Source: a virus. From it: DNA of 64,000 nucleotides. The stretch spans positions 1-64,000 of the IMG/VR virus record IMGVR_UViG_3300029349_000001. One strand, 5' to 3'. Under the pieces are notes generated by a model that was given only the letters and a program-made list of their open reading frames with translations, made no database searches and had not been told where the DNA came from. The translations under genes and the position numbers were made by a program. Positions 41,160 through 63,743 of this stretch are shown here, one piece after another. Position 1 is the first letter of the stretch, and every line of letters starts with the position of its first letter.

Positions 41160-42464
41160 ATGAGTGATTATTTATTATTAAAAATTAGTATTCTAGAACA
41201 TTCTACGGCCACAGAAAATTGTAGGCTTAGTGAGGATATTTTAACAGTAATTTGTGATCCGGTGCCAAGTCCAACACCAACAGCTACAAACACACCAACA
41301 CCAACACTCACAACCACTCCGACTAATACTCCTACAAATACATCAACACCCACACCGACCGCTACTGTTACAGCTTCTCCGATCACTCCTACGCCAACTC
41401 CGACAGCAACGAACACACCGACCCTAACACCAACATCTAGTGTAACTCCAACAGTTACGCCTACATTAACAGCCACGCCTACCGCTACACTAACACCGAC
41501 ACCAACAAATACTTTAATTATTCCACCAATCGTTAGTTTTAATGACACTAGTGATCAATTATATTTCTTTAATCTAAATGACTCAAGTGTTTTACTACAA
41601 ACACAAAAATCATTAGATAATGGTACTAGTTGGCAAGATATAGGTCCCTTTATCAGTGTAGATTCGAACTCAGGCATCTATGTTTCCCACACAGACAACT
41701 CCGCTGCTAAATTTAGATCTAGAGCATTTAGTTCCGGAGGCGGATCGATTGTTAGTCCTTGGTCATATGAATACGCATATGCTAATTCTGATAATTTAAA
41801 TGCTCCAGTTATTAACTATAATTACGACAATGGACTATTACAATTATTTAATTTAAATGATTTTAATGTTATTGCCCTTATAGAAAAATCAGAAGATGGA
41901 AACGTATGGCATAATATTACTGATTATAACGTAACTATGAATGCTAATAGTAGTAGATCTATGGCAGTAAATGCTAGTATTAGCACTAAATTCAGAGCTT
42001 TGGTCTTTACTCAATCATCTGGTGCTTCTGTTAGTTCTTGGGCTGTTACAAACAATCCTGTTGTAAGTCCCACACCCACAACAACACAAACATCTACGCC
42101 AACCCCAACTCCCACTTTAACATCTACAGCAACACCAACTCCTACTGTTACCGCTTCTCCTGGGGCTAATATAGTGTTAAATTCGGCCAACAATTGGACG
42201 TATGTGTTGAATAACTCGGTAATTTTAAAGTTTGTAAGACAAGACACAACCCAAACCAATATTAGTATTAATGTTCCGGCAAATAATATTACTCTTGTAG
42301 CTAATAATAGTGTTCCTAGTGTATCTAATATTGTATTTAATACAAACATTATTGGTCAGCTTATATATAATGGTCCTATATTCGAAAATAAGCCATTTAC
42401 TATGCGTATTGGTTCTACACCTTACTCTGGCACTATAAACTTCCAAACAATAACATTATCTTAA
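41160..42464 (+). CDS. Pro/Thr-rich virion appendage protein
   Basis: 434 aa; orphan two-strand N-terminus, long PT linkers, duplicated FnIII-like unit (FNLND...KS.D.G..W...KFR). Confidence 0.7.
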
Positions 42465-42482
42465 ATAATAGAAGGATAGGCA

Positions 42483-43559
42483 ATGATTATTGATAATATC
42501 TTCAACATCAAAACTTATGCCGGTAGTCAAGCGTTGCCTTTATTCAATGCCCCCAATAGCTTAGCGACTAACACAGCATACACTACGTTTCTGAATAATA
42601 TATTTACTATATATGGAACACAAACAGTAGACGGTTCCATTCCAGTCTTCTATAAAACCAATAATGTTCCGGATCCTAAATCGTCTTTACGAGCACTAGA
42701 TCCACAGCAATCTTATTACTTTATTAGCAAGGCAGACGCCACTCTTCCCTACAATATACCATATGTTGGTAATTTGTTACCATCTCCGTATCGCAATTGT
42801 CCTACTGTGGACGTAATACCCTCTAGAGTAACACTAACAGCCTCTTCTGGAAATTATTACTATTTAATTAATGATGTTGGTAATTTAAATACAGCATATC
42901 CTTATACTTACGAAGTCAAGGTATTAAGTAGTAATTGGAAGGTCACAACACTCGCTCCTTCTGGTACAGTAGCTAGTTCACAACCAAGCAATACGATTAT
43001 ATCTGCATTAAGATTTGATACGGATGCTGGTGTTACAGACTACTCTACCTTTTTACCGCCATCTACATCATCAAGTCAAATAGATCGTAATAATTTATTT
43101 GCAATTGTAGAAGTGTCTTTGAATTCTCCTCAAAATATTGATTGCCCCAAGATTGTAGACTTGATGCTACTACAGTGCAACAACTGTATTCCTGCCCCAT
43201 CCCCAACACCAACACCCACAGTAACTACAACTCCAACATTGACTCCAACACCCACCCCTACCAAGACACCAGCCCCTACTTTTGATAGCCAGTTGACTAC
43301 CGTACAAAATAACACAGCAGTAGCAGCCAACGGCATTACTTTTACCGCTGGTCTACAAGATAGACTCGACTATACTTTAATTTCACCTAGAGTTGGTCAG
43401 GCTAGGGCCGTGAATATTTTTGTTGGTGCTACACAAGTGGCTAGAGTAGACTATACTTCGGATTATGTTGGTAGAAGCTTTAGATATTATAGATCTTCAA
43501 CAGGATTATCTTATGTCGGTACATTCTCTGATACTGTGAATGGAAATATTAATTTTTAA
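42483..43559 (+). CDS. Virion appendage protein
   Basis: 358 aa; N-terminal domain resembles the N-terminal repeats of 43585 (IYG...SSL..L), then a Cys-capped domain and a PT linker. Confidence 0.65.
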   Translation: MIIDNIFNIKTYAGSQALPLFNAPNSLATNTAYTTFLNNIFTIYGTQTVDGSIPVFYKTNNVPDPKSSLRALDPQQSYYFISKADATLPYNIPYVGNLLPSPYRNCPTVDVIPSRVTLTASSGNYYYLINDVGNLNTAYPYTYEVKVLSSNWKVTTLAPSGTVASSQPSNTIISALRFDTDAGVTDYSTFLPPSTSSSQIDRNNLFAIVEVSLNSPQNIDCPKIVDLMLLQCNNCIPAPSPTPTPTVTTTPTLTPTPTPTKTPAPTFDSQLTTVQNNTAVAANGITFTAGLQDRLDYTLISPRVGQARAVNIFVGATQVARVDYTSDYVGRSFRYYRSSTGLSYVGTFSDTVNGNINF

Positions 43560-43584
43560 TTTCTAAAAGAAGAATATCAACATC

Positions 43585-46500
43585 ATGCCAATAACTATAA
43601 ATAAGCAATATCAATTTATTAAATTTTTAGGATCTTCTAATCTAAGTCTCAATAGTTTATCTGGTTCTATTACTAATCAAATTGCTATAATTTATGGTAT
43701 TTCCGCAGATGGTTCTTCATATTTATCATGGAGCAACAGTGCTTTTTCTAGTTTACAAAATCTAGAAACTTATAAGACATATCTAATTGTTAGCAATAGT
43801 GCAAATCCTAATTATACTCTATATTCAGGCAGTGAAGTAGTCGATGCGAGCACGAGTACAGAGATTACTACCACTAGATCAATGGAAACATATAGGGGCG
43901 CAACACCTCTGACACTAAGTAGTGCTAGTTTTAAAAATAATATTTTGTTGATATATGGTATTTCTAGTGATGGCTTAGGTTTCGTATCTTATAGTCCATC
44001 GTCTCAATTTAATAGTTTAACAACACTACAACCAGATGTTGGATATGAGTTTGTTACCAACGGCACTCCTTTTACACTGTGGTTGGCTCCTGGAGCATCT
44101 CCCACCCCAACGCCAACCCTCACAGCAACACCAACACTAACGCCGACCAATACCCCAACAAGAACTCTTACCCCAACACCTACTTTAACAGCAACTGTTA
44201 CTGCCACACCAACGCTCACACCATCATTAACGCAAACCAATACGCCCACACGCACACTCACTCCTACTCCTACGCTTTCTCCCACTCCAACGAGTAGTCC
44301 TCTATTAAGTCCTAATTTTGCTAATTATAATAATCAATCTATTTTTAAAGGACTAGCTAATAGTAGTACTGTTGGTACTAACGGAGCAAAAAGCTCGTAT
44401 GGTTGCCATGACATGAGTGGAAATGTTTCGGAGTGGGTTGGTCAAGCCACCGATGTTTGTTTAAGAGGCGGTAATTTTTCGTCTTCTTCAAATGATATTT
44501 CAAAATACGGTAGATTAGTAGTAGCCGCTACCGTATCTGATCCAGCCACGGGCTTTAGAATTGCTACGTCTGGCACAAATGGCGACCACCTATCACTAGG
44601 TAATTTCATTACTATTGGAAATACTAATAACGTATCTGATCCTGATACGAGTTATGGCGCTGTGGCATATTCTTATCGCATATCTAAATTTCAGGTTACC
44701 AATGATGAATATTGTGCTTTCTTAAATAGTCAAGCAAAATTAGATACAAAAGCATTATATAATTCTTTAATGAGTAACGATGCGGAAAGAGGAGGTATAT
44801 TGAGAGGTGGATCACCAGGATCCTATTACTATGTAAGCAAAATGCATCATGGTAATAAACCAGTTAATTATGTTAATTGGATAGATTGTGCCAGATACTG
44901 TAATTGGATACATAATGGAGCAACAGACACTAGCGATACAGAAAATGGAGCATATACCATCAATCCGTTGGGAGCTGTGGCAAGAAACACAGGCGCTAAA
45001 TACTGGATACCTCTAGAAAATGAATGGTATAAGGCAGCTTTCTATGATCCAGCCTCTACCAGTTACTATTTATATAGCACACAAAATAATAGCACACCAA
45101 CAGCAGCATCTCTTAACACTAATGGAGATGGGCCATTTTCTCCATCTTCAGCTTTTGATGATGGACAAATACTTATTGCTGATACAACCAAGATGGTGGT
45201 ACTAGATACTAATAATCCTAGTAGTAATATTGTAAATATATCAGATATTAATACCACTCCACATAGTCTAACAGTTGGTCCGTTTAGAGATGATGCTTTT
45301 ATCTCTAATTCCGCCGGTCTTATAGATGTGGTGAGCCTAACTGCACAAAATCCTAGTGGCTGGGCCAAGGTTTTATCTTTAGCGGCTGGATCTGACGCTA
45401 GAAAAATATTAGTTAGTTCTGACGGATCAAGATTATATTGTTTAAATTATAATGATAGAACTATTACCGTATATGACCTACTCGGATCCCCTAGGTATGC
45501 TACAAGACTCATTATGGATTATCGCGGTTCGGGCATAGTATACGACTTTTGCAATGGAGAAAATGCAGACACAATCTATGTAGCCTGCTCTAACGGATAT
45601 GTAGTCAGAACCACTATTACTGGATCTTCTTATAATAATAATATTTATTATTACTATCATGGTTTTATTAACCAGCCAGTATCAATGACTTTCTTACAAA
45701 ATCAAATATATGTAGCCTTGGTTGATGGTGCTACTACTATTAAAACCCGCAATATAAATAATGGCGCAGAAGCGACTATTAGTATTGTTGGATTAAGTAA
45801 TTTTGGACAGGCTTCTACAGTGACTGTTGTTAGATTGGCTTTATACAATGATCCTTATAACAAATATTTAGTTTTGACAGGAGAAATATCTAATCTTAAT
45901 AGAGGAGTTATATATTATTATAATCCCCTATATAACAGACAAATGTCTATCAGTTATACCGATACTGTATCAACAATCGGTATTTATACCAATATTGCAC
46001 AAAATAAAGACTATGCATATTTATTTGCCGGTAATAGATTGCTAACTTTTGATTCAACTAATAAATATTTTAGAACCTCGGTCGTTGTATCTCCCACTTT
46101 CAATAGTTCTATTATTAGAGATGTTGAGTTTAGAAGCAATACCGCGATACCAGCACCGTCTCCTTCTCCAACACCAACTAATACTACTACTCCAACCAGA
46201 ACACCCACTAATACGCCAACAGTCACCCCAACCAACACTGTTACCCCTACATTCACTTCTACCCCAACACCAACTCCAACACAAGAACCTCCTGTAGTAT
46301 ATTCTAACTCTATGGTGGCGGCTGTGGGTGCTAACGATGTGGGCCAATTAGGAGACGGCACTTATGGTTCATCCAAGGTCTTTAAGCATATAACTGCCCC
46401 ATCAGGAAATGTATTTAATTATAATGTAAGAGCTAGTTCTTTAGGTAGTCATAATCTCATTATTGATTCCAGCAATAGACTTTGGGGATGGGGTAATAAC

Positions 46501-47388
46501 GATAGGGGTCAAGTTGGTCCGTCAGCATGGACTAGTGTGGCTCCTTCTGGTAGTGGTTTGAATACCAATCCTTCTACTATGGCATATGATACAGTTAGTA
46601 ATAGGTATGCTATATTTGGTCTTTCAAGTAATGTTGTTAATGTTTCGACTAATGGTACCGTTTGGACAAGTGCAACTATCGGAACAGCTCCTCCATCTTT
46701 AAATTGGACAACATCTATCGGATGGAATAACAATACTTCCACAGGTGGAGGATCTCCACAAACTAATCAATACTCTATCTTTGCATTAGCTAATAACTCC
46801 AATATTCTTGCAGCATATAGCAATTCAAATAATACCTGGGTATCACCCAGCTTGTCTGTTACAAGAAATTGGACCGCTATGGTACAATCAAGAAATAAGA
46901 TTTTAGCTTTTGCTAGCAATAGCAACAATGTATTTACTATAGTTCCCGGAGCAAATAATACTATTACAACATCTGACGTAAGCCTAGGCTTAGGGTCTTT
47001 AAATGTGTTCTGGAAAACTGCGGCTGTTAATAGTAATGGCTCTACTATACTAGCAATTGGGTACGATTCAAGAACCATTGTTCGTAGTACTGATAGTGGC
47101 GCTTCTTGGTCGCAGGCTGGTGTTTCTTTACCTTTAGTTGCCAAATGGGAGAAGATTATTTGTTCTAACAACAGATGGATCTTAATCGCTTCTGATCAGG
47201 ATAGTGTATATACTAGTGATGATAATGGATCTAATTGGACAGCTCGCTCAACCAGCAGCACCAACCCGTCTTGGACTCAAATATCAGTCTATAATAATAC
47301 CATTATTTTAGTTGGATTAAATAATAACTATTACTTAACAAGTACTGATAATGGCACATCTTGGAAAAAACGATTCTTAGGCGTATAA
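43585..47388 (+). CDS. Multidomain appendage protein: permuted FGE-sulfatase-like domain, beta-propeller, two RCC1 blades, BNR/Asp-box propeller
   Basis: DMSGNVSEW, GFRIA, ENEWYKAA; GANDVGQLG, GNNDRGQVG; SxDxGxxW boxes. Confidence 0.8.
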   Translation: MPITINKQYQFIKFLGSSNLSLNSLSGSITNQIAIIYGISADGSSYLSWSNSAFSSLQNLETYKTYLIVSNSANPNYTLYSGSEVVDASTSTEITTTRSMETYRGATPLTLSSASFKNNILLIYGISSDGLGFVSYSPSSQFNSLTTLQPDVGYEFVTNGTPFTLWLAPGASPTPTPTLTATPTLTPTNTPTRTLTPTPTLTATVTATPTLTPSLTQTNTPTRTLTPTPTLSPTPTSSPLLSPNFANYNNQSIFKGLANSSTVGTNGAKSSYGCHDMSGNVSEWVGQATDVCLRGGNFSSSSNDISKYGRLVVAATVSDPATGFRIATSGTNGDHLSLGNFITIGNTNNVSDPDTSYGAVAYSYRISKFQVTNDEYCAFLNSQAKLDTKALYNSLMSNDAERGGILRGGSPGSYYYVSKMHHGNKPVNYVNWIDCARYCNWIHNGATDTSDTENGAYTINPLGAVARNTGAKYWIPLENEWYKAAFYDPASTSYYLYSTQNNSTPTAASLNTNGDGPFSPSSAFDDGQILIADTTKMVVLDTNNPSSNIVNISDINTTPHSLTVGPFRDDAFISNSAGLIDVVSLTAQNPSGWAKVLSLAAGSDARKILVSSDGSRLYCLNYNDRTITVYDLLGSPRYATRLIMDYRGSGIVYDFCNGENADTIYVACSNGYVVRTTITGSSYNNNIYYYYHGFINQPVSMTFLQNQIYVALVDGATTIKTRNINNGAEATISIVGLSNFGQASTVTVVRLALYNDPYNKYLVLTGEISNLNRGVIYYYNPLYNRQMSISYTDTVSTIGIYTNIAQNKDYAYLFAGNRLLTFDSTNKYFRTSVVVSPTFNSSIIRDVEFRSNTAIPAPSPSPTPTNTTTPTRTPTNTPTVTPTNTVTPTFTSTPTPTPTQEPPVVYSNSMVAAVGANDVGQLGDGTYGSSKVFKHITAPSGNVFNYNVRASSLGSHNLIIDSSNRLWGWGNNDRGQVGPSAWTSVAPSGSGLNTNPSTMAYDTVSNRYAIFGLSSNVVNVSTNGTVWTSATIGTAPPSLNWTTSIGWNNNTSTGGGSPQTNQYSIFALANNSNILAAYSNSNNTWVSPSLSVTRNWTAMVQSRNKILAFASNSNNVFTIVPGANNTITTSDVSLGLGSLNVFWKTAAVNSNGSTILAIGYDSRTIVRSTDSGASWSQAGVSLPLVAKWEKIICSNNRWILIASDQDSVYTSDDNGSNWTARSTSSTNPSWTQISVYNNTIILVGLNNNYYLTSTDNGTSWKKRFLGV

Positions 47389-47394
47389 TATAAG
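47380..47394 (+). promoter_or_regulatory. Candidate late promoter (GGCGTA variant)
   Basis: 35 bp before ATG 47415; overlaps the last codons of 43585. Confidence 0.4.
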
Positions 47395-47414
47395 TATAAT
47401 ATCAAGGATACATT

Positions 47415-50400
47415 ATGGCTAATTTTAGAAATCTTATCACAGGAAATGGTATACTTCTAGGACTGTCTGATGATAATCAGATGTATGTTTTAGGGGATAA
47501 TGCTAATAAAAATACAGTATCCAGAATCGGTAATGATGGTCCACTATACGCCGCCGGATGGAAATCAGCATCGGTTAACGCCAAGCATTCCGCAGCTATT
47601 ACCAATAATGGACAACTATATGTATGGGGAGACAACTCCTATGGTCAATTAGGCATAGGAGGATCAGTAGCGTCTTCTATGGATCCTATATTATTAGATA
47701 ATAGTGAATGGCTTAGTGTAAGTTGTGGAGCAAGACATACCGTAGGTATTAAAAAAGATGGATCTTTATGGGGTTGGGGATCTAATCAATTTGGTCAATT
47801 AGGACCAAACGCAGCAACTATACAATATGTACCTTATAGAATATCCGAGCCTTCTTTTAGCAACGTGGCCTTATTGTTGCACCTTAATGGTTTTGCTGGA
47901 TCAACTACGATTTCTGATAGTTCTTTATTATCTAAAAATGTTAAGATTATAGGATCTGGGAGACTATCTTCTACTCAGTCTAGGTTTGGAGGTATATCTT
48001 ATTATTATGGAGATACTGGCAGCAGTGGTATAGATGCCAACGGCTCATATGATGATCTAAAATTTGGTACTGGTGACTTTACAATAGAGGGATACTACTA
48101 CTTAAATAGTAATAGTAGCGACAACTTCTTATATGATACAAGACATCCCTGGAATGCATCAGGAGGATCTTACGCATATGTTACTAGTACTGGCGTACTT
48201 AATGTAGAAGGTCAGACCACTATTATTATGCCAACCAATCGTTGGGTTCATGTGGCTTTTAGTAGACAAAACGGTATATTAAGAACATTTTTTGATGGAG
48301 TATTAGTATATACTCAATCTTCAACCACTAACTACGATTCGGGATACTGCTATATTGGTGCTGCTGCTTACTATCCTGCTGGTGCCGCACCCTTCAGAGG
48401 TTACATAGACGAGGTAAGGGTTACTAAGGGAATTGCTAGATACGTATCAACCTTTACGGCTCCCACAATACCCTTTATGGACTCTAGCGATTCTTATTTA
48501 AAAATTGCTGCTGGTTCCTTCTTTAATTTAGCTATTAAAGCAGATAACACTCTTTGGAGTTGGGGCGATAATTCGTATGGACAATTAGGCACATCTTCTA
48601 CTGTCGCATCTAGACCAACACTTACACAAATTGGTACAGATAATAATTGGGTTGATATAGTATGTGGAGATAGTCATGCTCTAGCAGTTAAGTCCGATGG
48701 CTCTTTATATTCCTGGGGATATAATGCTTTGGGTCAGTGTGGTGTTGGTACTTCTAATGAGAGTTATAATAGTCCTATAGCTGTAACCGGGGTTCACGAT
48801 GGAGCTACTTATCGTCCAATTTTAGGCATTACTTTAGATAATGAAAAAAGAATAGCTTGTGGAAAAAATCACAGCTTTATTATCGCAAGAACAGCACTAG
48901 GAGATAATATCCTATTCGGCACTGGAGATAATAGCAACGCCCAATTAGGCACAGGAAACAATGATTCTAAAACAGTATTTACTGCCGTTGATCTTAGTAG
49001 AAGATTCATCTCTACAGATGCTGGTGTGAATCATAGTTTAGGCAAACTAGACTTACCAGAAAATCAACCAACTCCTAGTCCAACTCCCACACTAACTCCA
49101 ACACCAACAGTTACCGCAACCAATACTCCAACTGTAACACCAACTAGAACCGCTACGCCAACACTAACGGCCACTCCATCTGCAACCCCGGTTGGACCAC
49201 CACCTTCTCCGTCCCCAACTGCTACAGTATCACCCACTCCTTCTTTACCAGCTAGGGCAGGCTTTAATTGGTTTCCTATCAATATTGTTTCCAGAGCTTT
49301 TAATAGTGTAGTATACGGCGCTAAGCTCGATAGATTTATTGCTATGCCGAGAAATGGCAATATTCCAGCCATATCAGAAAATAGTACTGCCACAAGTTGG
49401 ATTGACACAAACTCCTTGCCTTCTAATATGGCTCTGCCAGAAGTTATAGATGCTAGACACTACTTGTTTTCATATGATCCTTCTTCGAGTCCAAGAGCTA
49501 ATGGTAACACGATAGCAATCTCTAAAAATGGGTTCGACTGGATTAACAATACTGTAGTAAGAACAGACTCTAATAGTTATAGTATAGTAAGCGCATCGTC
49601 TTATACTAGTTTGTCTAGTGTTGATGGACACATTGTTGCTGTGGGACCAGTTGCTAATAGTGGTAACAGAACAGCTCTTAGATATAAAAAAATTACAGTT
49701 AAGGATACTGATAATATTTCAGCCAGTATGATCCCAGAGCGAGACTTTGCTCCATTCTTAGATGCAAATAATCGTCCGATCTTAACGATAAATACAGCTA
49801 ATTATAATAATCATGTGGGCAGCGTAACAGATGTAAGATATAATGGTGGTTCTAGCGCATATGGCGCTTTCGATATGACAGGCAACGTAGATGAATGGAC
49901 AGGAACATCTGGTACCGGAGGAACATCATTCTTTACTTTGGGAGGAAACTATACTGCTAGTAATCCATCCAAAGATAATGTGACTACAACACAATCTTCG
50001 TCGTCTTCTATAGGGACAAGAGGTTTTAGACTTGCTAGTGTAACAAATCCAACTAATAATTATAGCACATTTGTGTCTGTTGGAGATATCAACAATGATT
50101 CGGATAACGGTGTGGGTTCTGTTACTTCTAATTATCGTATTGGTACATATCCTGTGACAAATTTGGAATATGTTGAATTTTTAAATGCTGTTCAGCCCAC
50201 CGGCAGCATTAGTGAATTACACAATATTCCCTCCTTAGCTGATAAAGACGTAGGAATTAAATTACCATATACGATATCTAATACTATAGAGAGTAATTCA
50301 ATCTACTCATATGGCATAGCGATTAATCCTAATACCAATAGAGCATATGTATGTAAATACTATGACAGTAGTTTACAAGTTATAGATCTTAATACTTCTA

Positions 50401-52571: not shown

Positions 52572-52573
52572 AT

Positions 52574-52591
52574 GGTGTAATTACTAATATA
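52574..52591 (+). promoter_or_regulatory. Candidate late promoter (GGTGTA)
   Basis: 44 bp before ATG 52618. Confidence 0.55.
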
Positions 52592-52617
52592 ATTCATTTT
52601 AAATTAAAGGCTAAACT

Positions 52618-55600
52618 ATGGGATTAACATATCAATGGCAAGTATCAACAGATAATACAGCGACAGTATTCGTTGACTTGCAAGACGGTCCATTGGTATC
52701 TGGAACCAAGACTCAAACACTATTATTTAACAATCTAACAGTAGCTGATAATAATAAAAAATATCGCGTAATTATCGGTAGTACAGATTTTAATGTGGCT
52801 CCTGTTGTTAGTGATGCTGCTACTCTTTTCACAGCTCCCTCTATTACTTTAAGTACAATCCCAGATATAGCCACAACAGCGACAACAGCAACATTTTCTG
52901 TTAGCGGAGTAGCTAATACTGGTACTATTAGTTATCAATGGCAAAAAAGAGTACCTTGCGCCCCAACTGCTACAGAACCATGTTTTATTAATTTAGTAGA
53001 TCAAACAGGTTCCGTTAGCGGTGCTCTTACTCCAAATCTTATTTTAACTGGATTAACAGCTGCGGTACATAATAATTCTCAATACCGAGTTGTTGCCAGC
53101 GCACAGTGTTGTGGAACAACCGCCATTACACAATCATCAAATGTCGCAACACTACAAGTTGCCACACAAGGACAAACACTATTTATTACTAAAGACTTAA
53201 CAGATGCAATAATAGCAACAGACAAAACTGCTTCTTTTAATATAGAGATACAAACGACAACAACCAATTCGACACCGGTCCCAGTAACATTCGGATGGCA
53301 AAAATTAGTTGCTGGGAGTTGGGTAAATGTAACTAATAATCAACCGATACAAAGTTCAGTTATTAATCCTACATTATTGCTATACAAACAAACACTAGCT
53401 ATTACTAGTGCTATTGATAGCGAATCTTATAGAGTTGTGGTAAACGATGGAAGGTCATCCGCCACCAGCGCTACCGCAAAGAGTAAGAATCCCGCCACAT
53501 GTACTGATTGTGGAGGTAGTGGTACTGGAGATCCACACTTTTATATAGGCGGGAATTACGGCTTTGATGATAATCCGATTATTAACGGACACAAAGAAAT
53601 TGTAATGCTTTATATAAAAAACAAAAAAGACAATACCGAGCACGTATTAACTTGCAAAAATACTGGAGCTTTCGGCAAGTCTTCTCCATATAACGTAGAA
53701 AGAACTTCATATACACAATTTAAAGATGGTAAAATTGTTGGAGCCAGAGTAGACAACGGAAAAGCAGATATGATGGGTGTGGCAATGATGAACGCCGCTT
53801 CTGGACGTTTTGCTTTTACTTGGTCTGTTCTAAACCCCTCTAATATCCACAAAGCTCAAGACTTAGATATAGTTATTGGTGGTGCGTGGTATTGGATGTG
53901 CAAGTCCCTAATTCAATATCTAAAAAAGAATCCGTCTTTCATGAGTTTAGGATGGCCATATATTGGTTGGATTCATGCTGATGGCATCGGTTTGGGATTG
54001 GCTCCATATAATCTTATCAGAGAGAATTTTGAAATAGATAATTTATATCTTAAAAATAGTGGAAGTGCGAATATTGACGGTCTTTATATAGCTTCTAGCA
54101 AAGATGATAAGAATAGTACTAGATACAATAAAGACAATAGTGCATATTCCATAATTAGAGATCGCGGACTATGGCAAATCAAAACCAGGGTTCTGTCTCC
54201 TATCGCAATGACTAAAATTTCTGATACGCAATTTAGCATCAGCACATCTCGCTATATAGATGCAGAAAGTCTAAGTGTTGGCCTTGGGGTTGGTAGTAGT
54301 GCGGCTGGCGTTGTTGCTGGAAATCCTATCATATCATCTATCTCGTATAAATATCCTGCTCAAGCTATGGCGAGAGAAGATGTAGCGCCTATCACTGCTG
54401 AAATCACCGTAAGTGGTGGGCAGATTCTACAAAGCGGCTCCGTTATTTTTGGATATTTTGTAGACACCACAAACACTAGTAATAGTATTACACTACCTAA
54501 TCTCTTTACAGCTTCAGATATATATATTGGTCAAAAAATTACTATTAGCGGAGCTACATCTGCTAATACTACAATTACTAATATTAACGGGAATATATTA
54601 ACACTAAGTAGTAATTGTACTGCTACTGGTAGGTTCCCACTAGAAATTATTTATGCTGAATCTTTTGAAGACAATACTACTTCTCCAGATTTATCTGGGG
54701 GATGGTTAAAAAATAAAAATATTATTCCAGACATTAAATTATTACCATTATTATCTAGTCCAGAAGGCATATCTAAAATTGCAGAAGATATCACCGCCAA
54801 TCCTCGTTTTTGGCATGAGTTGTCTTTGGCTCTATCGGGCAAGCCTCTAGACGGAACTCCAGTAAATAGTATAGTAGCACAACCCAAAGATACTATCTCT
54901 GTCAATGGAATAGCGTCTTTTACTGTGGTTGCTGAATTGGCCAGTTCCAAATATCAGTGGCAAAAATCCACAGACAACGGAGTGTCTTGGATAGATATAG
55001 CTGGAGCTACTAATGCTACACTTGTAGTTAATGCTATTAAATCTGATAACGGATCGTTGTTCAGAGTAAAAGTTGACACTGTTCTTACCAGTAGTAGTGC
55101 TAAGTTATCTGTTCCATCTACTCTTAGAGTCCAACAAGAACCATCAAATACTAGTGCTATTAATCTACAGGCCGTATTCGGTGTTGTTGCTAGCGGAGTA
55201 CAGCCGATTACATATCAGTGGCAAAAATCCGACGATAATGGCGCAACATTCTCTAATGTGCCAAACAACAATCTACCTACCCTTACCTTGAGTAATCTTA
55301 AAGCTGAAGATGATAATGATCTATATAAAGTTTCTGTGGCCGACGGAGCCGGAGATTCCTATACATCAGCCGCTTATAAGCTCTTTATTAATCCAGTCTT
55401 AAGTATCACATCGCACCCGACTACACAAACAGCATCCGAGGAAGAAACAGCTACTTTTAGTGTTTCTGGCACTTGCAATAACGGGTTGTTTAAACACCAA
55501 TGGGAAGTATCTACCAATAATGGCGTATCATATGCGGCCGTTGGAGAACCTTCTTATTCTGGTAATTTAAATTTAAGTGGTCTCAAGATATATGATGATA

Positions 55601-57291
55601 ATAAGCTGTATAGAGTTAAGCTTATTTCTGATATAAAGAATAACTTTGTTTATTCTAGTGGTGCTAGATTATTGGTACCTAATAGTCTTACAATAGTTAC
55701 TCAGCCAGCAAATACTATATCTTCTAGCGGCAATGCAACATTTTCTGTTGGAGCAAACTCATCTCAGCCACCTCTAAGTTACCAGTGGCAGACACAAGCA
55801 CCACAGTCCAACAATTGGATAGACATAGTTTCTGGTACTGGGTCTACTTTAAATGTAACAGGACTAAGGCTCGTTGACGATAATACTAAATATAGAGTTA
55901 TATTAACAGATCAAAGAGGTTCTGTATATAGTCAACAGGCTATCGTAGACACGACACCCCAAATTTCTATCACTCAAAATATTGCTGGATATACTAGCAA
56001 TAATTATAAGCTTAACTTAACTGTTGTGGCATCTGTTTTGACCACAACACTAGAAAATACTTCTGGTAGTTTGGTATATAGTTGGGAAAAAGCAGATCCA
56101 GGATCCAATTTATTTGCCCCACTTACTGGTATTCCATCTAATCAAAATTACCTATTAGGAGATCTAAAGGTGGCAGATAGTGGAGTAAAGTATAGAGTAA
56201 AATTAAGCCTACCCGGCGCACGAGACCTATACTCCAATACTGCACAAATAGATGTGCCTCCATCAATAACTGTTAATGTCAAAACTCCATTTTTAGCAAA
56301 GACCAACTATCCCAATACGGATATTACTTTATCAATTGATGCGACAACTAAAGTTCCACCACTAAACTATCAATGGCAAAAAGCAAGCACCACAAGTAAT
56401 CTTATTAATTATCAATTCCCTAATAATGATCCTTTCTATGATAGAGTAGGACTATTTATGGAAATGAGTGGTGTTTCTGGCACGAGGGCTTTTGTGGATT
56501 CGACAGACAAAACATATATAATACCGTATAGAGATGATTCGGTATATAATCAATATGCAGATATTAAATTATCAAATTTAGATTTCAAGTCTGCTCCAAC
56601 TAGTGCTAGATTTAATGATATATACAGTCATCTTAGAGTTTTTGATAGTGGCAATAATTTGTATTTTGGTAACAAGAACTTTACTATAGAATATTGGTAC
56701 AAGCCAACTGAGTATTCTGAAATGAGTGTTGTATCTCGAAGAAAGGGTAATGTTTGGCCTGTTTACGGTAATGTGGGCTGGACTTTAAGTAGTACTCGTT
56801 TTAGAGCTAAAATAGGACAGACTTGGAGAGATGATTGGATTGATGATAATGGGAATTTATCTATTATACCAGTGAACGAATGGACACACGTAGCCTTAAC
56901 CCGCTATAATAATACATATCGTTTATTTAGAAATGGAGCTATGGTTGGCAGCTTCTTCAATAACGAGACTTTGGATGAAACATCTGGCCCTCTAGTAATT
57001 GGCACCTCAAGTTCGGTTCAAATTAATAGTACAGAGAATGGTTACAGTTTGGTGGGCTTTTTAGATAATCTAAGAATTACTGTTGGATTGGCTAGATATA
57101 CACAGAACTTTGTTCCAGATACATTAATAGATACAGACTATCAAGTAACCATAGCCAATAATAATTTTACTAATATTCCCAACGCAACAGGAACTACGCT
57201 AAAATTAGAAGGATTAACAAGCAATAATAATCTAGAACAATATAGGGTTGTTCTAACCGATCCTGTTTCGACTGTTATAGTAGAGAATTAA
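52618..57291 (+). CDS. Multi-Ig-domain appendage protein with a GDPH (VWD-like) domain and LamG
   Basis: Repeated YQWQ.S.D.G...YRV Ig units; GTGDPHF; GFLDNLRITVG. Confidence 0.8.
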   Translation: MGLTYQWQVSTDNTATVFVDLQDGPLVSGTKTQTLLFNNLTVADNNKKYRVIIGSTDFNVAPVVSDAATLFTAPSITLSTIPDIATTATTATFSVSGVANTGTISYQWQKRVPCAPTATEPCFINLVDQTGSVSGALTPNLILTGLTAAVHNNSQYRVVASAQCCGTTAITQSSNVATLQVATQGQTLFITKDLTDAIIATDKTASFNIEIQTTTTNSTPVPVTFGWQKLVAGSWVNVTNNQPIQSSVINPTLLLYKQTLAITSAIDSESYRVVVNDGRSSATSATAKSKNPATCTDCGGSGTGDPHFYIGGNYGFDDNPIINGHKEIVMLYIKNKKDNTEHVLTCKNTGAFGKSSPYNVERTSYTQFKDGKIVGARVDNGKADMMGVAMMNAASGRFAFTWSVLNPSNIHKAQDLDIVIGGAWYWMCKSLIQYLKKNPSFMSLGWPYIGWIHADGIGLGLAPYNLIRENFEIDNLYLKNSGSANIDGLYIASSKDDKNSTRYNKDNSAYSIIRDRGLWQIKTRVLSPIAMTKISDTQFSISTSRYIDAESLSVGLGVGSSAAGVVAGNPIISSISYKYPAQAMAREDVAPITAEITVSGGQILQSGSVIFGYFVDTTNTSNSITLPNLFTASDIYIGQKITISGATSANTTITNINGNILTLSSNCTATGRFPLEIIYAESFEDNTTSPDLSGGWLKNKNIIPDIKLLPLLSSPEGISKIAEDITANPRFWHELSLALSGKPLDGTPVNSIVAQPKDTISVNGIASFTVVAELASSKYQWQKSTDNGVSWIDIAGATNATLVVNAIKSDNGSLFRVKVDTVLTSSSAKLSVPSTLRVQQEPSNTSAINLQAVFGVVASGVQPITYQWQKSDDNGATFSNVPNNNLPTLTLSNLKAEDDNDLYKVSVADGAGDSYTSAAYKLFINPVLSITSHPTTQTASEEETATFSVSGTCNNGLFKHQWEVSTNNGVSYAAVGEPSYSGNLNLSGLKIYDDNKLYRVKLISDIKNNFVYSSGARLLVPNSLTIVTQPANTISSSGNATFSVGANSSQPPLSYQWQTQAPQSNNWIDIVSGTGSTLNVTGLRLVDDNTKYRVILTDQRGSVYSQQAIVDTTPQISITQNIAGYTSNNYKLNLTVVASVLTTTLENTSGSLVYSWEKADPGSNLFAPLTGIPSNQNYLLGDLKVADSGVKYRVKLSLPGARDLYSNTAQIDVPPSITVNVKTPFLAKTNYPNTDITLSIDATTKVPPLNYQWQKASTTSNLINYQFPNNDPFYDRVGLFMEMSGVSGTRAFVDSTDKTYIIPYRDDSVYNQYADIKLSNLDFKSAPTSARFNDIYSHLRVFDSGNNLYFGNKNFTIEYWYKPTEYSEMSVVSRRKGNVWPVYGNVGWTLSSTRFRAKIGQTWRDDWIDDNGNLSIIPVNEWTHVALTRYNNTYRLFRNGAMVGSFFNNETLDETSGPLVIGTSSSVQINSTENGYSLVGFLDNLRITVGLARYTQNFVPDTLIDTDYQVTIANNNFTNIPNATGTTLKLEGLTSNNNLEQYRVVLTDPVSTVIVEN

Positions 57292-57295
57292 TCAC

Positions 57296-60200
57296 ATGAC
57301 ACAAATTTATACATCTAATACTGTTTTAGTCAAAGCAAAAGCGCCTATTGTTAATTTTTCTGAAGGCGACTCCGCGACATTAGTAGCTGATATTAGTATT
57401 ATATGGATCAACCCAAGCTCGGCACAAAGGTTTTTGACTCATAAATGGCAAGAGTCCAATGACGGAGGAGTAACCTGGAGAGATATTAGCTCAGGTATTG
57501 CGGACCATCCACTATCAACAAATAATATAGCTCCAACCAAAACCGTATCTTTGCTCGATAATCAACTTGCAGATCTAGAATTATCAGAGTTTAATATTGC
57601 CAAAACTAAGCCAATAGTAGCTTCTCTCACCATCGATAACGTACTATTAAGTCAAGATAATTATTTATACAGATGCATAGTGTTGTTATATAACAATGAT
57701 ATTAATACAATTGAGAGTGCTGGTACTAGTGAAAATATTTTCCTCAATATTTCAGAGAAAAAAACAGGTCATTTATTACCTAATTTTGATATTCCTTGGG
57801 ATCCTATGAATCCTCGTGGAGTAATCAAATCTGGAAATCTTAAGTTTGATCAAAACACTAAGATAGAGTTATTTAAGCTTACAAAAGATGCTTGTGGTTC
57901 TCAGTGGAGAATTATAGAGGTAGGCTATGGAACTCAGTATATCAACGGCAATATCACTAATGGTATGCCAGTAGGCTTACCCAAAACTTATGGCCCCAAC
58001 GATCAAACATATCCGGGCTATATGGAATTACAGTTTTATTGTAATAATAGTTGGGTAACACAGGAATCTTGGATATCTTTAGTGGGCAATGATGAACACG
58101 TATTTGAAAAATATGGACCAATATCTCCAGTAACCGTATCTATCAACGGAGAAGCTTTAGTTAGTCAAACATCTTTAGGTACGAAAGATAATCCTTTAGT
58201 TATTAAACCAACACCCGGTGCAACAGGAGGTTCGTCTCTAGATGTTACTGGTGTTTCAGATAATAGCACCGTATCTGTATCATGGAATGGAACAGCCCTA
58301 GGGTATAGTAACACATTAGGTATCCAACAAGCTGGAACACAAACCATAACCGTACCATCATCCTTCGTTCTGCCTGTACAAGTTACTATTACAGGAGGAT
58401 GTGATGATGACTTGGTAGTTAATGGTCAGGTTATTAATCAGAATAATTTAGCTGATAATGTTAACTATACTTTTACTTGTGAGACCAGAACATTTACTGT
58501 AAGTGTTTACAATGCTATGGCTGGCGGTACTGCTTATGACTATAATATTTCTTTTGCTGGGACTCAAAGCGCTAATAGTGCTGTTTCCGCTATTAGGTCT
58601 GACACTACTAATATTTTAACAATATCACAAGCTTCAGAAACTAAAAATGTAAGTGTTAATAGCAATAATAATAATTGGACCGAGGCTGGTATTAATGTAC
58701 AAGAAGGATCTAGACTGTTTATATCTGCTACTGGCAGCATACAGTGGTCTACTAATAATTTTAGCAGTCCTTCTGGTGTTGGTTCTGGTAATGCTGTTTT
58801 ATATAGCGGCATTCCCCAATCAGCTTTAGTTGGAAGAATAGGAACAACTGGAACGCCATTTTATATAGGAGATTACTATAATAGCTTTGCTAATGGTAGT
58901 GGTCCTCTATTCTTGTCTGTCAATGATAGTAATAAGAATGATAATTCTGGATCATATGCGTCTATCATAAAATATGCAACACCAGATCCTTTGGGCATTA
59001 AAGTTACAACATTGAATTCTGAGCCTTATGATTCTACCATTCAAGACCTAGATTTTTCCAAGGTGAGCTTATTATTAAAATCCGATAATGACTCATTAAA
59101 TGATGTTTCGGCCAAGCCAAAATCTTTTACTAGTACCAACGTTAGTTTTAGTAGTCAGATAAATACTTTTGGTGGTTATTCTGCATACTATGGAGACAGT
59201 GGATATTCTGTAGCTAATTCCGATAGTTCTCTAGGATTCTCTGGTGATTTTACTATTGAAGGATGGTTTTATTTCTCTAAGAATAATGTTGGATACCAGG
59301 GTTTAGTTTCCACATATAGAACCGGAGACATTAGTGGATGGATATTGGTTTTAGAGAGTAATAACACTTTAAGATTTTACGCTACTAATGCTAATATTAC
59401 TTGGTATTGGCCCCTATCTATATCTTCTAATTATACTCCGCCAACAGAGAAATGGACATATATTGTTGTACAAAGACTTGGTTCCTCTGTGAAGATGTTT
59501 GCTGATGGAGTAGAAGTTGGATCAACTTCTAATAATCTGGATATAACAAGCGGCTCCAAGATAGAAGTAGGCGGTTATCAATACTTTCCGGGTGGACGTA
59601 GATCATTACAAGGATATGTTGACGAAGTTAGAATTACTAAAGGATTGGCCAGATATCCACAGAGCAACCCGCCACTACCAAACAAACCCTTTCCGAAACG
59701 ATCATATAGTGCTACACAAATAATAGATATCTCTGGTAGTCAGAAATCAGCCACTCCAGTATACGATAGTAACGGAAATTTTCTTTACTACGAATTTAAC
59801 TCCAAGAATAGTTACATAGGTCCGTACAACGAGCCTGGACAGCTTAGTTTGGTTTATGGGTATGTTTCTGGCTCTCCGATAGTCGCACAGACACCGGCAG
59901 AAGGATATTTCCAAGCTTTTGATGGCAGTGATAGATATTTCAGAAAACTTGGGGTTTATGATTTAGATTGCTGTTATATGGGTGGCTACACACCAGATGA
60001 CGGATACTATATATTATCCAGGAGAGCTGACGGTCAGTATGTAGTATCAGAAAGCGTTAGATGGTATGCTGCTAATGGATATGCTGTTGGAACCATAGTG
60101 CCATATCCTCCTCAAATTAATCAAGTAGGAGATAATGGACATCCTAATAATAGCGCATCATGGAGATCGTGGAGTTGGAGTAATTCGTGCTGTAATAATG

Positions 60201-61654
60201 ATGGTACTAAAAATTATTTTGAATTAACAGATGAGGTTCTCACCCCATTAACCCCAACACCTACTGTTACTCCAACAAGTATAACACCAACACCCACTCC
60301 TACAGTAACATCAACGGTAACAGCAACACCAACCATTACTCCGTCTGTTACCACTTCATCTTTACCTCCTGCTTTTGATACTCTATATAGTGATGTTGTA
60401 TTATTGATGAATATGTCTGGAACTAATAATAGTAAAAATATTATTGATTCATCATTATTGAATAATACTATTGTTGCTACTGGTAATGCTGCTATTTCTA
60501 CCTCTCAAAGCAGATTCGGAGGATCAAGTCTATTAGTACCAGAAGCAACATCTAGTCGCAATGCAATATATTTGTCAGCTTCTAATAATTTTAATTTTGG
60601 TTCTGGTAATTTTTCTGTAGAATTTTGGCTTAGACAGAACAGCACTCCGCAATCTGGTTCTCGCGTGTTTCAAACTAGCGAAAACAACGATACTACTTCT
60701 GGTGTGGATATTTATTATCCAACCAATAGTAATTCTTTATTAGCAAAACTATCAGATAATAGTAATAATACTGTGGTATTATCTATGGGGGCCACAGATA
60801 CATCAGTGTGGAATCATTATGCTCTAGTAAGAAATAACCACAATATCATTACATATAGAAATGGTGTTCAGGTAGCCTCGCAATATGCAGTAATGAATTT
60901 ATCAAACTCTTCTGGTAATGTGGTTATCGGAGGCAATGCTACAACCGGTCCAAATAGATCAATTAATGCTTACATAGATGACATGAGAGTTACTAAGGCG
61001 TCAAGATATACTAGTAATTTTACTAGTCCGGTATTTCAGTTAGTTAATGCTGGACCGCCAGTTACTCCATCAAATACTGCAACTCCAACCAATACGCCCA
61101 CAGTCACAGTCACACCAACATTAACAGCATCAAATACTCCTACACCTACTGTTAGTGCAAGTGTAGGATTTATATCATCGCCAACACCCACTTCCACAGT
61201 AACTTCTACGGCGACACCAACCTCTTCGCCTCCAGCGCCGCAAGCGTTAACATTTTCTGCTCTTCAGGCTGGGTGTGACCCAAGATGGCAGCTAGGCAAT
61301 ATTCCAGCCAATACCACATCTTTAAGATTGACCTCTTCTGGTTCACATCGCGGTGGTGCGTTTAGTAATATTGTGTCAACATTCCCGATTGATACTAATA
61401 GTACACAAATTATAACTGGTCCTACGAATAACTCTTGGAGTATACATATTTCCCACTTCGGAGCCTCTTTGCCGGGTGGTTCGGCTCCCGGAGCATCCAT
61501 AAGAGGATATTTTGATACCGGGACGCGGGAGGGCAGCAATTTTTGGAATACGGAACACAACTTTACGGCAAGAATAGAAGCGCTAGATGTGAGCAATAAT
61601 GTGATAGGCATTATAAACAATACTAGTTGGATTAAAGACGATTGCGACGACTAA
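57296..61654 (+). CDS. Multidomain adhesin: Ig, LecA/PA-IL-like and two LamG domains, PT linkers
   Basis: HKWQES.DGG..W...YRC; ALVGRIG...LFLSVND...DNSG; GYVDEVRITKG; AYIDDMRVTK. Confidence 0.75.
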   Translation: MTQIYTSNTVLVKAKAPIVNFSEGDSATLVADISIIWINPSSAQRFLTHKWQESNDGGVTWRDISSGIADHPLSTNNIAPTKTVSLLDNQLADLELSEFNIAKTKPIVASLTIDNVLLSQDNYLYRCIVLLYNNDINTIESAGTSENIFLNISEKKTGHLLPNFDIPWDPMNPRGVIKSGNLKFDQNTKIELFKLTKDACGSQWRIIEVGYGTQYINGNITNGMPVGLPKTYGPNDQTYPGYMELQFYCNNSWVTQESWISLVGNDEHVFEKYGPISPVTVSINGEALVSQTSLGTKDNPLVIKPTPGATGGSSLDVTGVSDNSTVSVSWNGTALGYSNTLGIQQAGTQTITVPSSFVLPVQVTITGGCDDDLVVNGQVINQNNLADNVNYTFTCETRTFTVSVYNAMAGGTAYDYNISFAGTQSANSAVSAIRSDTTNILTISQASETKNVSVNSNNNNWTEAGINVQEGSRLFISATGSIQWSTNNFSSPSGVGSGNAVLYSGIPQSALVGRIGTTGTPFYIGDYYNSFANGSGPLFLSVNDSNKNDNSGSYASIIKYATPDPLGIKVTTLNSEPYDSTIQDLDFSKVSLLLKSDNDSLNDVSAKPKSFTSTNVSFSSQINTFGGYSAYYGDSGYSVANSDSSLGFSGDFTIEGWFYFSKNNVGYQGLVSTYRTGDISGWILVLESNNTLRFYATNANITWYWPLSISSNYTPPTEKWTYIVVQRLGSSVKMFADGVEVGSTSNNLDITSGSKIEVGGYQYFPGGRRSLQGYVDEVRITKGLARYPQSNPPLPNKPFPKRSYSATQIIDISGSQKSATPVYDSNGNFLYYEFNSKNSYIGPYNEPGQLSLVYGYVSGSPIVAQTPAEGYFQAFDGSDRYFRKLGVYDLDCCYMGGYTPDDGYYILSRRADGQYVVSESVRWYAANGYAVGTIVPYPPQINQVGDNGHPNNSASWRSWSWSNSCCNNDGTKNYFELTDEVLTPLTPTPTVTPTSITPTPTPTVTSTVTATPTITPSVTTSSLPPAFDTLYSDVVLLMNMSGTNNSKNIIDSSLLNNTIVATGNAAISTSQSRFGGSSLLVPEATSSRNAIYLSASNNFNFGSGNFSVEFWLRQNSTPQSGSRVFQTSENNDTTSGVDIYYPTNSNSLLAKLSDNSNNTVVLSMGATDTSVWNHYALVRNNHNIITYRNGVQVASQYAVMNLSNSSGNVVIGGNATTGPNRSINAYIDDMRVTKASRYTSNFTSPVFQLVNAGPPVTPSNTATPTNTPTVTVTPTLTASNTPTPTVSASVGFISSPTPTSTVTSTATPTSSPPAPQALTFSALQAGCDPRWQLGNIPANTTSLRLTSSGSHRGGAFSNIVSTFPIDTNSTQIITGPTNNSWSIHISHFGASLPGGSAPGASIRGYFDTGTREGSNFWNTEHNFTARIEALDVSNNVIGIINNTSWIKDDCDD

Positions 61655-61655
61655 T

Positions 61656-62054: not shown

Positions 62055-62595
62055 CGGAAAGAGCTTTGCTCACGTTAGCAGAAGTTGCACAAGCACATTA
62101 GCCGCTCATGCTTTAAAAAACTTTTGGCCAGAAAAGTATGAACAGTTTATCCAACAAGAAAATAGTGCTAACTCTCCACAAACCTTTATGCAAGAAACTT
62201 GGGCTAGTAGGTTGGCCCCACATTGTTTGGTGATGGTTAGAAATCCTATAGATAGACTAAATAGCCTAATTTCTAGAAACCTATACCCCCTAGAGACGGT
62301 AGAAGCTGTTTTGTCCGCTTGTCATAGATGTTTAATCACGACCAGAGATGTATCAAAAACAATAGATATTGTTAAATTTCATCATATTTCTCCAGTGTGT
62401 TGGATTGCTGATAATGATAGTACTTTCTGTTTATTTCCAGACGTTAAAAAAGCATGTGCAATGTTGGATATGGAATATTATCCGGACATTCATGAGAATG
62501 CACTGCAAAATCAACGCAATGAACATATTCCCAACGAATGGATGTCTTATCTACAAGATAGCATAGGGTTGTGGGAAGCCCTAAGTAAAAATTGA
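62026..62595 (+). CDS. Sulfotransferase-family-like protein
   Basis: FAHVSRSCTSTL (5'-PSB-like), VMVRNPIDRLNS (3'-PB-like), later HEN motif. Confidence 0.6.
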   Translation: MLKMYYSLPNGKSFAHVSRSCTSTLAAHALKNFWPEKYEQFIQQENSANSPQTFMQETWASRLAPHCLVMVRNPIDRLNSLISRNLYPLETVEAVLSACHRCLITTRDVSKTIDIVKFHHISPVCWIADNDSTFCLFPDVKKACAMLDMEYYPDIHENALQNQRNEHIPNEWMSYLQDSIGLWEALSKN

Positions 62596-62647
62596 TATAT
62601 AATAATTAATGGGTCAATTGCTGATTGGTTTTACAAAAGGAGTAATT

Positions 62648-62664
62648 GGTGTATTTCTTTATAG
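62648..62664 (+). promoter_or_regulatory. Candidate late promoter (GGTGTA)
   Basis: 39 bp before ATG 62687. Confidence 0.55.
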
Positions 62665-62686
62665 TCATAAACTTTAGAGGTGTGTA

Positions 62687-63454
62687 ATGTTATTATCAAA
62701 TTCTAGTCAGCCATATTTATATAATGATAACAATGTATCTCGTATATTATATTGTTGTGCTGATCATGCTATAGATTTAAATTATGGTGGCTCAATATAT
62801 ACTATCAGACCATGGAAAATTAAATTATTAGATTTAAGTAACAACACCAGCGTTCTAGTACCCACAGTATCTTATGACGAGCAATATGGTAGAGTCGCCC
62901 TAGAGTGTAATCCTCATATAGTTATTAGTAATTCTATTGTTAAATTATATTATACTGTTGGCTTTATGAAAAGTGATGATAGTCCCATAATTTATTATTT
63001 ATGCTCTATGACAGCAGATAATTTGTCATTAACTAATTTAACAGACTTTACTGTTATACAAAAAACATTTAGCGGCACATTTCTTACAGACAGCGAATTA
63101 TTATTTGTAGATAAAATTTATGGCAAAGATACTCTAGTTCGCAAAACTATAGGATCTACTAATGGTAGTCTAGTGCCGGTTGATACTATGTCTTTAGAAG
63201 AAATATTAAGAGTAACTAGAACATTCGATACTAATCAAATAATTATTACTGGTAAAACATCACAAAAAACATATGTGTCATATTTATTAAATAATGATCT
63301 TAGCATAGATAAAAAAATTAATAACTCTTATGGTATGGATATTTATAAGTGTAGTATATTAAATAACGTATTGGCCTATACTGTGCGTAACGAGTCCTAT
63401 AATAAGGAAGATGTAGAGAGTAGGAGTATAGTAGTTGAAAATATTGTTAATTAA
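62687..63454 (+). CDS. Hypothetical beta-rich protein
   Basis: 255 aa, GAGG RBS, preceded by the GGTGTA motif. Confidence 0.65.
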   Translation: MLLSNSSQPYLYNDNNVSRILYCCADHAIDLNYGGSIYTIRPWKIKLLDLSNNTSVLVPTVSYDEQYGRVALECNPHIVISNSIVKLYYTVGFMKSDDSPIIYYLCSMTADNLSLTNLTDFTVIQKTFSGTFLTDSELLFVDKIYGKDTLVRKTIGSTNGSLVPVDTMSLEEILRVTRTFDTNQIIITGKTSQKTYVSYLLNNDLSIDKKINNSYGMDIYKCSILNNVLAYTVRNESYNKEDVESRSIVVENIVN

Positions 63455-63460
63455 GCTTGT

Positions 63461-63474
63461 GGTGTATTCTATAG
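63461..63474 (+). promoter_or_regulatory. Candidate late promoter (GGTGTA)
   Basis: 43 bp before ATG 63504. Confidence 0.55.
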
Positions 63475-63503
63475 TGATTACTATATTATAGGAGATAAAT
63501 TAT

Positions 63504-63743
63504 ATGGCCAATCCGGATTTAAAAGTTACTTTTCCAGATGGAAATATTAAGCGCTTAGAAAACAGCCAATGTGCCTGTCCGAATATGCTCAGTGTGGTAG
63601 TTAATAACATGGTTGTTGGTAAAAAATATACTGTTTTTATTAATAACTTAAATAATACTCCCGTTAGAACATTTCCTAGTAGTTATAGTTTCGTTGCTGA
63701 AAGCGCCAATAAGACACTAGCTTTTTATTATCAGTTTAGTTAA
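63504..63743 (+). CDS. N-terminal part of a Cys-capped beta-sandwich domain
   Basis: 79 aa; LSVVVNNMVVGKKYTVFINNL aligns with LTLYVSNLLVGHRYFCTITDL of 36492; AGGAG RBS. Confidence 0.7.
   Translation: MANPDLKVTFPDGNIKRLENSQCACPNMLSVVVNNMVVGKKYTVFINNLNNTPVRTFPSSYSFVAESANKTLAFYYQFS

Follow-up and report, generated by a model that had tools for sequence, protein, structure and literature searches.

Can one immunoglobulin (Ig)-like domain be encoded in two pieces, by genes lying about 22 kb apart, and be put together when their products meet? The question is raised by a 64,000-nucleotide (nt) stretch of viral DNA, positions 1 to 64,000 of IMG/VR record IMGVR_UViG_3300029349_000001 (here the window), in which the small gene at 63504-63743 and the 5' end of the gene that starts at 41160 each specify a fragment of a beta-sandwich domain that other genes of the same phage encode whole. 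An initial annotation, made from the sequence alone, had proposed that these fragments complement each other in trans and are maintained by selection. Naming genes by the position of their first letter, we find that each piece supplies the part of a single domain type that the other lacks; that they pair with each other is a more tentative proposition, weighed below against two alternatives.

The two pieces tile a single Ig-like domain

The argument turns on four elements, two of them fragments and two of them intact copies:

63504..63743, plus strand: 79-amino-acid (aa) gene for a PapD/MG-like Ig sandwich confined to strands A-E, the proposed acceptor half (translation, family, AlphaFold2 (AF2), hhalign, and the ratio of nonsynonymous to synonymous substitution rates, dN/dS)
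41160..41261, plus strand: N-terminal 34 residues of the 41160 product, an orphan F-G hairpin, proposed donor half (conservation, hhalign)
36669..37019, plus strand: intact reference copy, residues ~60-176 of the 176-aa product of 36492-37022 (AF2, Foldseek, VIA)
42795..43187, plus strand: second intact copy, within the 358-aa product of 42483-43559, bounds approximate (hhalign)

The complete form of the domain is provided by gene 36492, whose family alignment comprises 37 sequences. The AF2 model of its product (predicted local distance difference test score, pLDDT, 86) has a C-terminal domain of seven strands, which form a full sandwich of sheets A-B-E and C'-C-F-G on one chain. Foldseek matched this domain to PapD, FimC, FaeE and MSP at expectation values (E) of ~2e-4, and also to complement MG domains, while VIA gave Z scores of 8-9.9 over 95-108 residues. 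The initial annotation had listed further intact copies, two in 37025 and two in 37812; of its list, 36492 is borne out by profile and fold and 42483 by profile, and the copies in 37025 and 37812 gave no significant profile-profile comparison, fitting by motif only. The two intact paralogues, 36492 and 42483, belong to the same domain family as the fragments and have cysteines in the same positions, where strand B begins and strand G ends, but they carry all seven strands on one chain. The 42483 copy also has the Cys-x10-Cys spacing of the 41160 hairpin.

When the fragments were aligned to the 36492 family, they fell on adjoining stretches:

63504 family residues 23-67 on 36492 residues 76-121 (profile-profile comparison, E 8.4e-5)
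63504 family residues 28-71 on 36492 residues 81-125 (hhalign local rerun, E 1.3e-5)
41160 hairpin family residues 5-35 on 36492 residues 141-174 (profile-profile comparison, E 4.2e-4)
41160 hairpin residues 6-33 on 36492 residues 142-172 (hhalign local rerun, E 2.4e-4)

The last strand of 63504 corresponds to strand E (125-132) of 36492, with the break in the E-F loop, and the ranges covered by the two fragments are complementary and do not overlap, leaving ~3-8 template residues of that loop uncovered. The same order is seen, at weaker significance, on the 42483 family, with 63504 at 128-178 (E 2e-3) and the hairpin at 215-233 (E 4e-3). The profile alignment that the initial annotation had proposed as a check has thus come out in its favour, clearly on 36492 and more weakly on 42483. 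The relationships also hold in the reverse direction: the best non-self matches of the hairpin profile are the F-G regions of 36492 and 42483 orthologues, those of the 36492 F-G profile are residues 6-34 of 41160 orthologues, and the best non-self match of the 36492 domain profile is 63504. Judged by these profiles, the nearest relative of each piece inside the phage is the 36492 domain, reciprocally.

Structural comparison gives the same picture for the 79-aa protein. Its model matches the templates less strongly than does that of the reference copy (VIA Z ~5; Foldseek E > 0.1), and instead of a complete PapD/MSP/MG-like fold it aligns to the first part of each template:

FimC: 63504 model at 1-70, 36492 domain at 1-117
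Caf1M: 63504 model at 8-83, 36492 domain at 7-147
SafB: 63504 model at 8-81, 36492 domain at 8-135
C4 MG domain: 63504 model at 828-904, 36492 domain at 830-937

On these shared templates the 63504 model spans just the first two thirds of the domain. Because profile tiling, reciprocal matches and template coverage agree, the 63504 product and the 41160 N-terminus represent complementary halves of the same type of domain. To this extent the initial annotation was right: all three peptides that it had quoted lie where it had placed them, the 63504 product holds only the first part of the domain (strands A-E by both profile and fold), and the first 34 residues of 41160 hold only the last two strands, aligned to F-G of 36492.

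Conservation of the 79-aa gene

The 63504 family consists of 35 protein clusters, 77-85 aa in length and 49-86% identical, all of which stop on the same strand. Against the closest relative (L001) dN/dS is 0.06, with dS saturated against the other relatives, and the pattern is that of a real conserved gene under purifying selection, not of a stray open reading frame (ORF). Two signals precede it:

63490..63494, plus strand: AGGAG ribosome-binding site, 9 nt ahead of the 63504 ATG (sequence reading)
63461..63467, plus strand: GGTGTAT promoter-like motif, 43 nt upstream of the 79-aa gene (putative promoter function)

Both elements that had been read as the gene's own promoter and ribosome-binding site are therefore present as AGGAG and a conserved GGTGTA, the latter kept upstream of 63504 homologues in five of six relatives, with the promoter function itself being putative. 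A six-frame hidden Markov model (HMM) scan gave no sign that 63504 continues in another frame. Independent assemblies and three complete genomes show the same arrangement, in agreement with the earlier view that neither a sequencing error nor read-through explains it.

Two homologues deserve separate mention. In L021 (1-521) a distant 86-aa homologue overlaps the end of the upstream gene by ATGA, and that upstream gene closes with an intact domain end and a Pro/Thr-rich (PT) tail, suggestive of a longer gene severed at its linker. In P0037, a JGI contig of 1.6 kb, a 79-aa homologue is identical to its relatives over 45 residues and then wholly divergent; it is probably a frameshifted or mis-assembled copy.

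Conservation of the 41160 hairpin

The hairpin is the first element of a modular fibre protein that directly follows the end of gene 37812:

41055..41147, plus strand: C-terminal PT tail of the 1111-aa 37812 product, followed by TAA TAG and, 13 nt on, by the 41160 start
41160..42464, plus strand: gene for a 434-aa fibre protein composed of hairpin, PT linker, two repeated beta domains, PT linker and C-terminal domain
41262..41510, plus strand: Pro/Thr-rich linker of ~83 residues, tethering the hairpin to the rest of the 41160 protein (translation)

A hairpin of ~34 residues occupies the extreme N-terminus in every 41160 homologue found, down to 46% overall identity, including a distant 173-aa form (L022) and the homologues in three complete genomes. 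Shorter orthologues (153-230 aa) retain the hairpin, linker and C-terminal domain. Within the hairpin alignment 13 of 40 columns are invariant, two cysteines among them, and dN is 0.05-0.14 with dS saturated; the linker behind it varies in both length and sequence among homologues while the hairpin is kept. By these measures the hairpin is under purifying selection.

The six-frame HMM scan detected no A-E piece hidden upstream of 41160 in any frame. In the window 37812 and 41160 are in frame, with TAA TAG and three codons between them, and all relatives show this succession of PT tail, stop and hairpin gene, with a shared reading frame in some of them and a shift of frame in others. A recent nonsense split of one 37812-41160 gene can be dismissed, since a junction kept in all relatives, and out of frame in L015 and L034, must be old; in any case, read-through from 37812 into 41160 could not supply strands A-E.

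Do the two pieces complement each other?

The initial annotation had suggested co-folding the two fragments as a further check. Co-folding of 63504 with the 41160 hairpin gave a score of 0.56 against 0.02 for the best of three controls, a result graded as 'weak support'. Contacts agreed to at least 91% between runs, with partner pLDDT of at least 68, and both chains were predicted with greater confidence together (pLDDT 75-76 for 63504 and 69 for the hairpin) than with an unrelated protein (50-51 and 39, respectively). The pass mark is reached by 58 of 80 solved complexes and by two of 110 mismatched pairs; passes at or below 0.60 comprise seven of the 80 solved complexes plus both of the passing mismatches.

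The genomic distribution bears on the same point. Each of three CheckV-complete related genomes with the 79-aa gene has exactly one hairpin-first gene, 19-32 kb upstream of it. When one complete genome, G006 (152 kb), was surveyed with HMMs and for PT linkers, one A-E-only copy and one F-G-only copy emerged, the other detectable copies being intact. On the more distant contig L022 a hairpin-first gene lies directly upstream of that for P0097; among longer proteins, it is the N-terminal domain of P0097 that matches the 63504 profile best. The co-occurrence that the initial annotation had proposed as a check is accordingly found, one copy of each in all three complete genomes, but it comes from a single phage group.

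The two proteins also show two attributes of a donor-strand pair. The acceptor in such pairs is an Ig-like fold short of C-terminal strand material, and 63504 has this form, with two strands missing; the donor presents its strand or strands at the N-terminus of another subunit, as residues 1-34 of 41160 do. Taking these observations together with those set against them below, we consider it possible, at a little short of an even chance, that 63504 and the 41160 hairpin complement each other as a pair.

If they do, the mechanism could be envisaged as follows. The 63504 product would be a small virion-associated protein with an Ig-like sandwich lacking its last two strands, and the 41160 fibre protein would present precisely those two strands as an N-terminal hairpin on a long, flexible PT linker. 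The hairpin would insert into the open 79-aa sandwich and complete its fold, in the manner of pilus donor-strand complementation, and the completed fold would fix the 41160 fibre to the structure that holds the 79-aa protein; this structure is probably made by the 660-aa gene found without exception after 63504. In the profile alignments the invariant C23 of 63504 aligns with the invariant C76 of 36492, and the invariant C32 of 41160 with the invariant C171 of 36492. Given these aligned invariant cysteines, and a fold topology that should bring the beginning of strand B and the last part of strand G to one end of the sandwich, it is conceivable that a disulfide between C23 of 63504 and C32 of 41160 locks the two chains together. 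The full proposal, namely that this is a natural two-gene split Ig-like domain with its halves encoded ~20-30 kb apart, which reassembles, possibly with a disulfide lock, to attach a fibre to the tail, and which is one case of a wider assembly rule joining successive adhesin polypeptides by mutual domain completion, is more doubtful than the pairing taken alone, and we put it forward as a possibility below even likelihood.

Several observations weigh against the pairing of 63504 with 41160 and are best considered together with the explanations that they favour. The first of these holds that the pieces are real, selected and incomplete, but that each has another partner. The hairpin would then dock by beta-augmentation on a different tail protein, for example on an edge strand of an intact Ig domain or on the 37812 product, and the 79-aa protein would have its fold completed, or be held, by a different protein (the adjacent downstream gene being its likeliest source) or by self-association. 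That downstream gene, of 611-674 aa (660 aa in the window), adjoins 63504 in every locus seen, and is kept even in distant lineages where the counterpart of 63504 is a longer protein; so constant a neighbour favours a different primary partner for 63504. In the main lineage 63504 never lies beside the hairpin gene, which for its part always comes directly after a 37812-like gene ending in a bare PT tail. The co-fold result does little to counter this: docking would be probable for any F-G hairpin of the family, so that the pass is uninformative on specificity, and by the tool's own statement wrong results outnumber right ones among weak passes if there is no good prior. The co-occurrence in three genomes of one phage group is likewise weak evidence, as membership of a shared core could account for both genes. 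Nevertheless, searches of the window, of the 45 kb downstream of it (G001) and of the complete genome G006 turned up no further orphan A-E or F-G piece, and it would be a coincidence for two pieces with separate partners to share the same break loop and the same nearest paralogue. On balance we regard this explanation as somewhat unlikely.

The second alternative, which we consider improbable, takes the 79-aa protein as an autonomous short form of the fold and the hairpin as a relic of a once complete N-terminal domain, kept to cap or stabilise the protein or its translation start, with the tiling reflecting common descent only. It draws on the closest longer homologues of 63504, in which the A-E unit occurs without F-G in cis: in P0104 and P0118 strand E of this N-terminal module runs straight into a PT linker, and P0092, P0097 and P0101 seem, on by-eye reading, to have an A-E unit followed by a separate Ig domain. 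As A-E without cis F-G recurs in these longer proteins, it may be an autonomous short form, and AF2 does model the 79-aa product alone as six strands with a pLDDT of 77. Furthermore, P0104-type genes hold the position of 63504, ahead of the homologue of the 660-aa gene, for which reason the shortening of such a gene seems a better account of 63504 than excision from 41160. Against this, the 63504 model stops 33-64 residues before the domain end on every shared template, and neither the PDB nor the ESM Atlas yielded a small autonomous protein of its shape, all matches being parts of larger domains with a template modelling (TM) score by target of at most 0.42. Nor would a mere relic keep its 13 invariant positions while the adjacent linker turns over completely. 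In sum, the A-E unit may be an acceptor module of wide occurrence or, alternatively, a short fold that is autonomous.

In view of these points, what survives of the selected trans complementation proposed in the initial annotation is that the halves are complementary and that purifying selection acts on both, their mutual binding being only weakly predicted. The further statement that the arrangement is the best support for a functional split-fold chain overreaches, given the weak co-fold pass and the occurrence of A-E without cis F-G in the longer homologues.

Two further possibilities found no confirmation. An exhaustive profile search for a fused 'Rosetta stone' form retrieved longer proteins that start with a 63504-like unit, none of which has a later segment recognised by the hairpin profile. 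A second donor-acceptor pair in the P0104 lineage was considered on account of a 35-aa Cys-bearing tail on the upstream gene product, but by profile and by eye this tail resembles the start of a domain from strand A to CxC, not F-G. Within this P0104/P0118 lineage, in L026 (5850-5958), L027 (5850-5958) and L019 (690-803), the gene before the 63504-like gene ends in a long PT linker and a conserved CxC tail of ~35 aa, which is kept at 46% divergence of the neighbouring protein.

Comparison with known strand-complementation systems

The closest parallel to the proposed joint is offered by the chaperone-usher pili (PapD, FimC or Caf1M with their pilins), in which an Ig-like sandwich short of C-terminal strand material is completed in trans by the N-terminal extension of another chain; PapD-like chaperone domains are also the best structural matches of both the 63504 and 36492 models. 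In contrast to a pilin, which misses a single G strand, the phage protein lacks two strands, the F-G hairpin, and the donor lies on the PT linker of a phage fibre protein, with no detectable sequence relationship to the pilus proteins and with binding that is weakly predicted. The phage system has no chaperone, usher or periplasm, as far as can be said where no search aimed at a chaperone or usher was made. As the setting is a phage tail module, we treat the likeness as a functional analogy and not as membership of that system.

Donor-strand exchange also builds a fibre outside pili, that of TasA of Bacillus subtilis (PMC9674648). TasA subunits are likewise joined by insertion of a strand into the neighbour's beta-sandwich, but they form a homopolymer by exchange of one strand, whereas here two proteins of distant genes would form a single joint. 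A third comparison is with engineered split Ig-like domains of the SpyTag/SpyCatcher type, in which a small peptide with terminal strand material combines with a larger partner under an isopeptide lock. In the phage, too, a small strand peptide would rebuild an Ig-like domain with a larger partner; unlike these man-made, isopeptide-locked pairs, the phage pair would be natural and locked by a disulfide at most.

A full-text literature search returned no report of strand complementation in phage tails. If the pairing is true, fold complementation of the donor-strand type would have a role in building a phage tail, a use for which no description was found. It would also explain how linker-tethered fibres are attached in these jumbo phages and why several giant adhesin genes are cut inside domains and yet conserved, and would supply a small natural tag-and-catcher pair (~35 + 79 residues) for protein engineering. 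Should the pieces not bind, a conserved 79-aa family and a conserved N-terminal hairpin are still defined.

The phage and its tail module

All large ORFs of the window are on the plus strand. Gene 21973-35016 encodes a tape-measure protein, its counterparts in relatives matching PF10145, and at 4347 aa it is exceptionally long (4021-4318 aa in relatives). Gene 9595 has matches to tail-fibre PHROGs, and the genes from 43585 to 61654 encode lectin-like, RCC1, FGE-sulfatase and Ig domains. Identical or related sequence is found in contigs (up to 235 kb) from freshwater metagenomes, and related IMG/VR records rated complete measure 152-200 kb, one of them with direct terminal repeats. A DNA-level search against GenBank phages gave no match, and the sole match to a GenBank phage protein is that of a short N-terminal motif of the 36492 product to cyanophage PSS2. 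The tape-measure gene, the tail-fibre PHROG, the adhesin-type domains, the contig sizes and the lack of a GenBank DNA match together identify the window as the part of an uncultured freshwater jumbo phage that encodes its tail and fibres. Searches of Pfam (E <= 0.1) and PHROGs (E <= 0.01) assigned no family to the 63504, 41160 or 36492 products, and scans of IMG/VR with P0002, P0104 and P0118 returned no matches.

Other gene boundaries inside domains, and the GGTGTA motif

A second domain cut by a gene boundary occurs between 47415-52571 and 52618-57291 (window 52413-52830). The 1718-aa product of 47415 ends with strands A-B of its Ig repeat and a 23-aa PT tail, and the 52618 product starts at strand C of the same repeat type, after a 46-nt gap that contains GGTGTA; domains split across genes therefore recur in this phage, a point in favour of the proposed pairing. 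The 37812-like proteins and that of 47415 terminate in a bare Pro/Thr linker, which leads to no further domain (window 41055-41147 and 52500-52571; L015, L017, L018 and L034-L036). The two window tails end alike (..TPSRS..), and that of 37812 is kept in all relatives examined.

Four of the six plus-strand copies of GGTGTAT in the window fall in the intergenic 2.5% of the sequence, 35-52 nt upstream of start codons, although the motif is not enriched over the window as a whole. A scan for sigma-70 promoters around 63504 found sites no more numerous than in shuffled sequence. GGTGTA with an AT-rich, TATA-like stretch stands 35-90 nt before start codons at 14419, 18260, 35033, 52574, 62648 and 63461, with variants at 9542 and 37773, a recurrent motif that probably serves as a promoter specific to the phage.

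The products of 52618 and 62687 have a similar C-terminal beta-strand motif, h-V-h-V-E-N (window 57265-57291 and 63422-63454), which is kept at the end of the 62687 homologues of L001 and L023 and may be a shared C-terminal docking strand. At the other end of the window, a 228-aa ORF (41-727) begins with ~12 tandem six-residue (EVTPEV-like) repeats, which are followed by a globular part.

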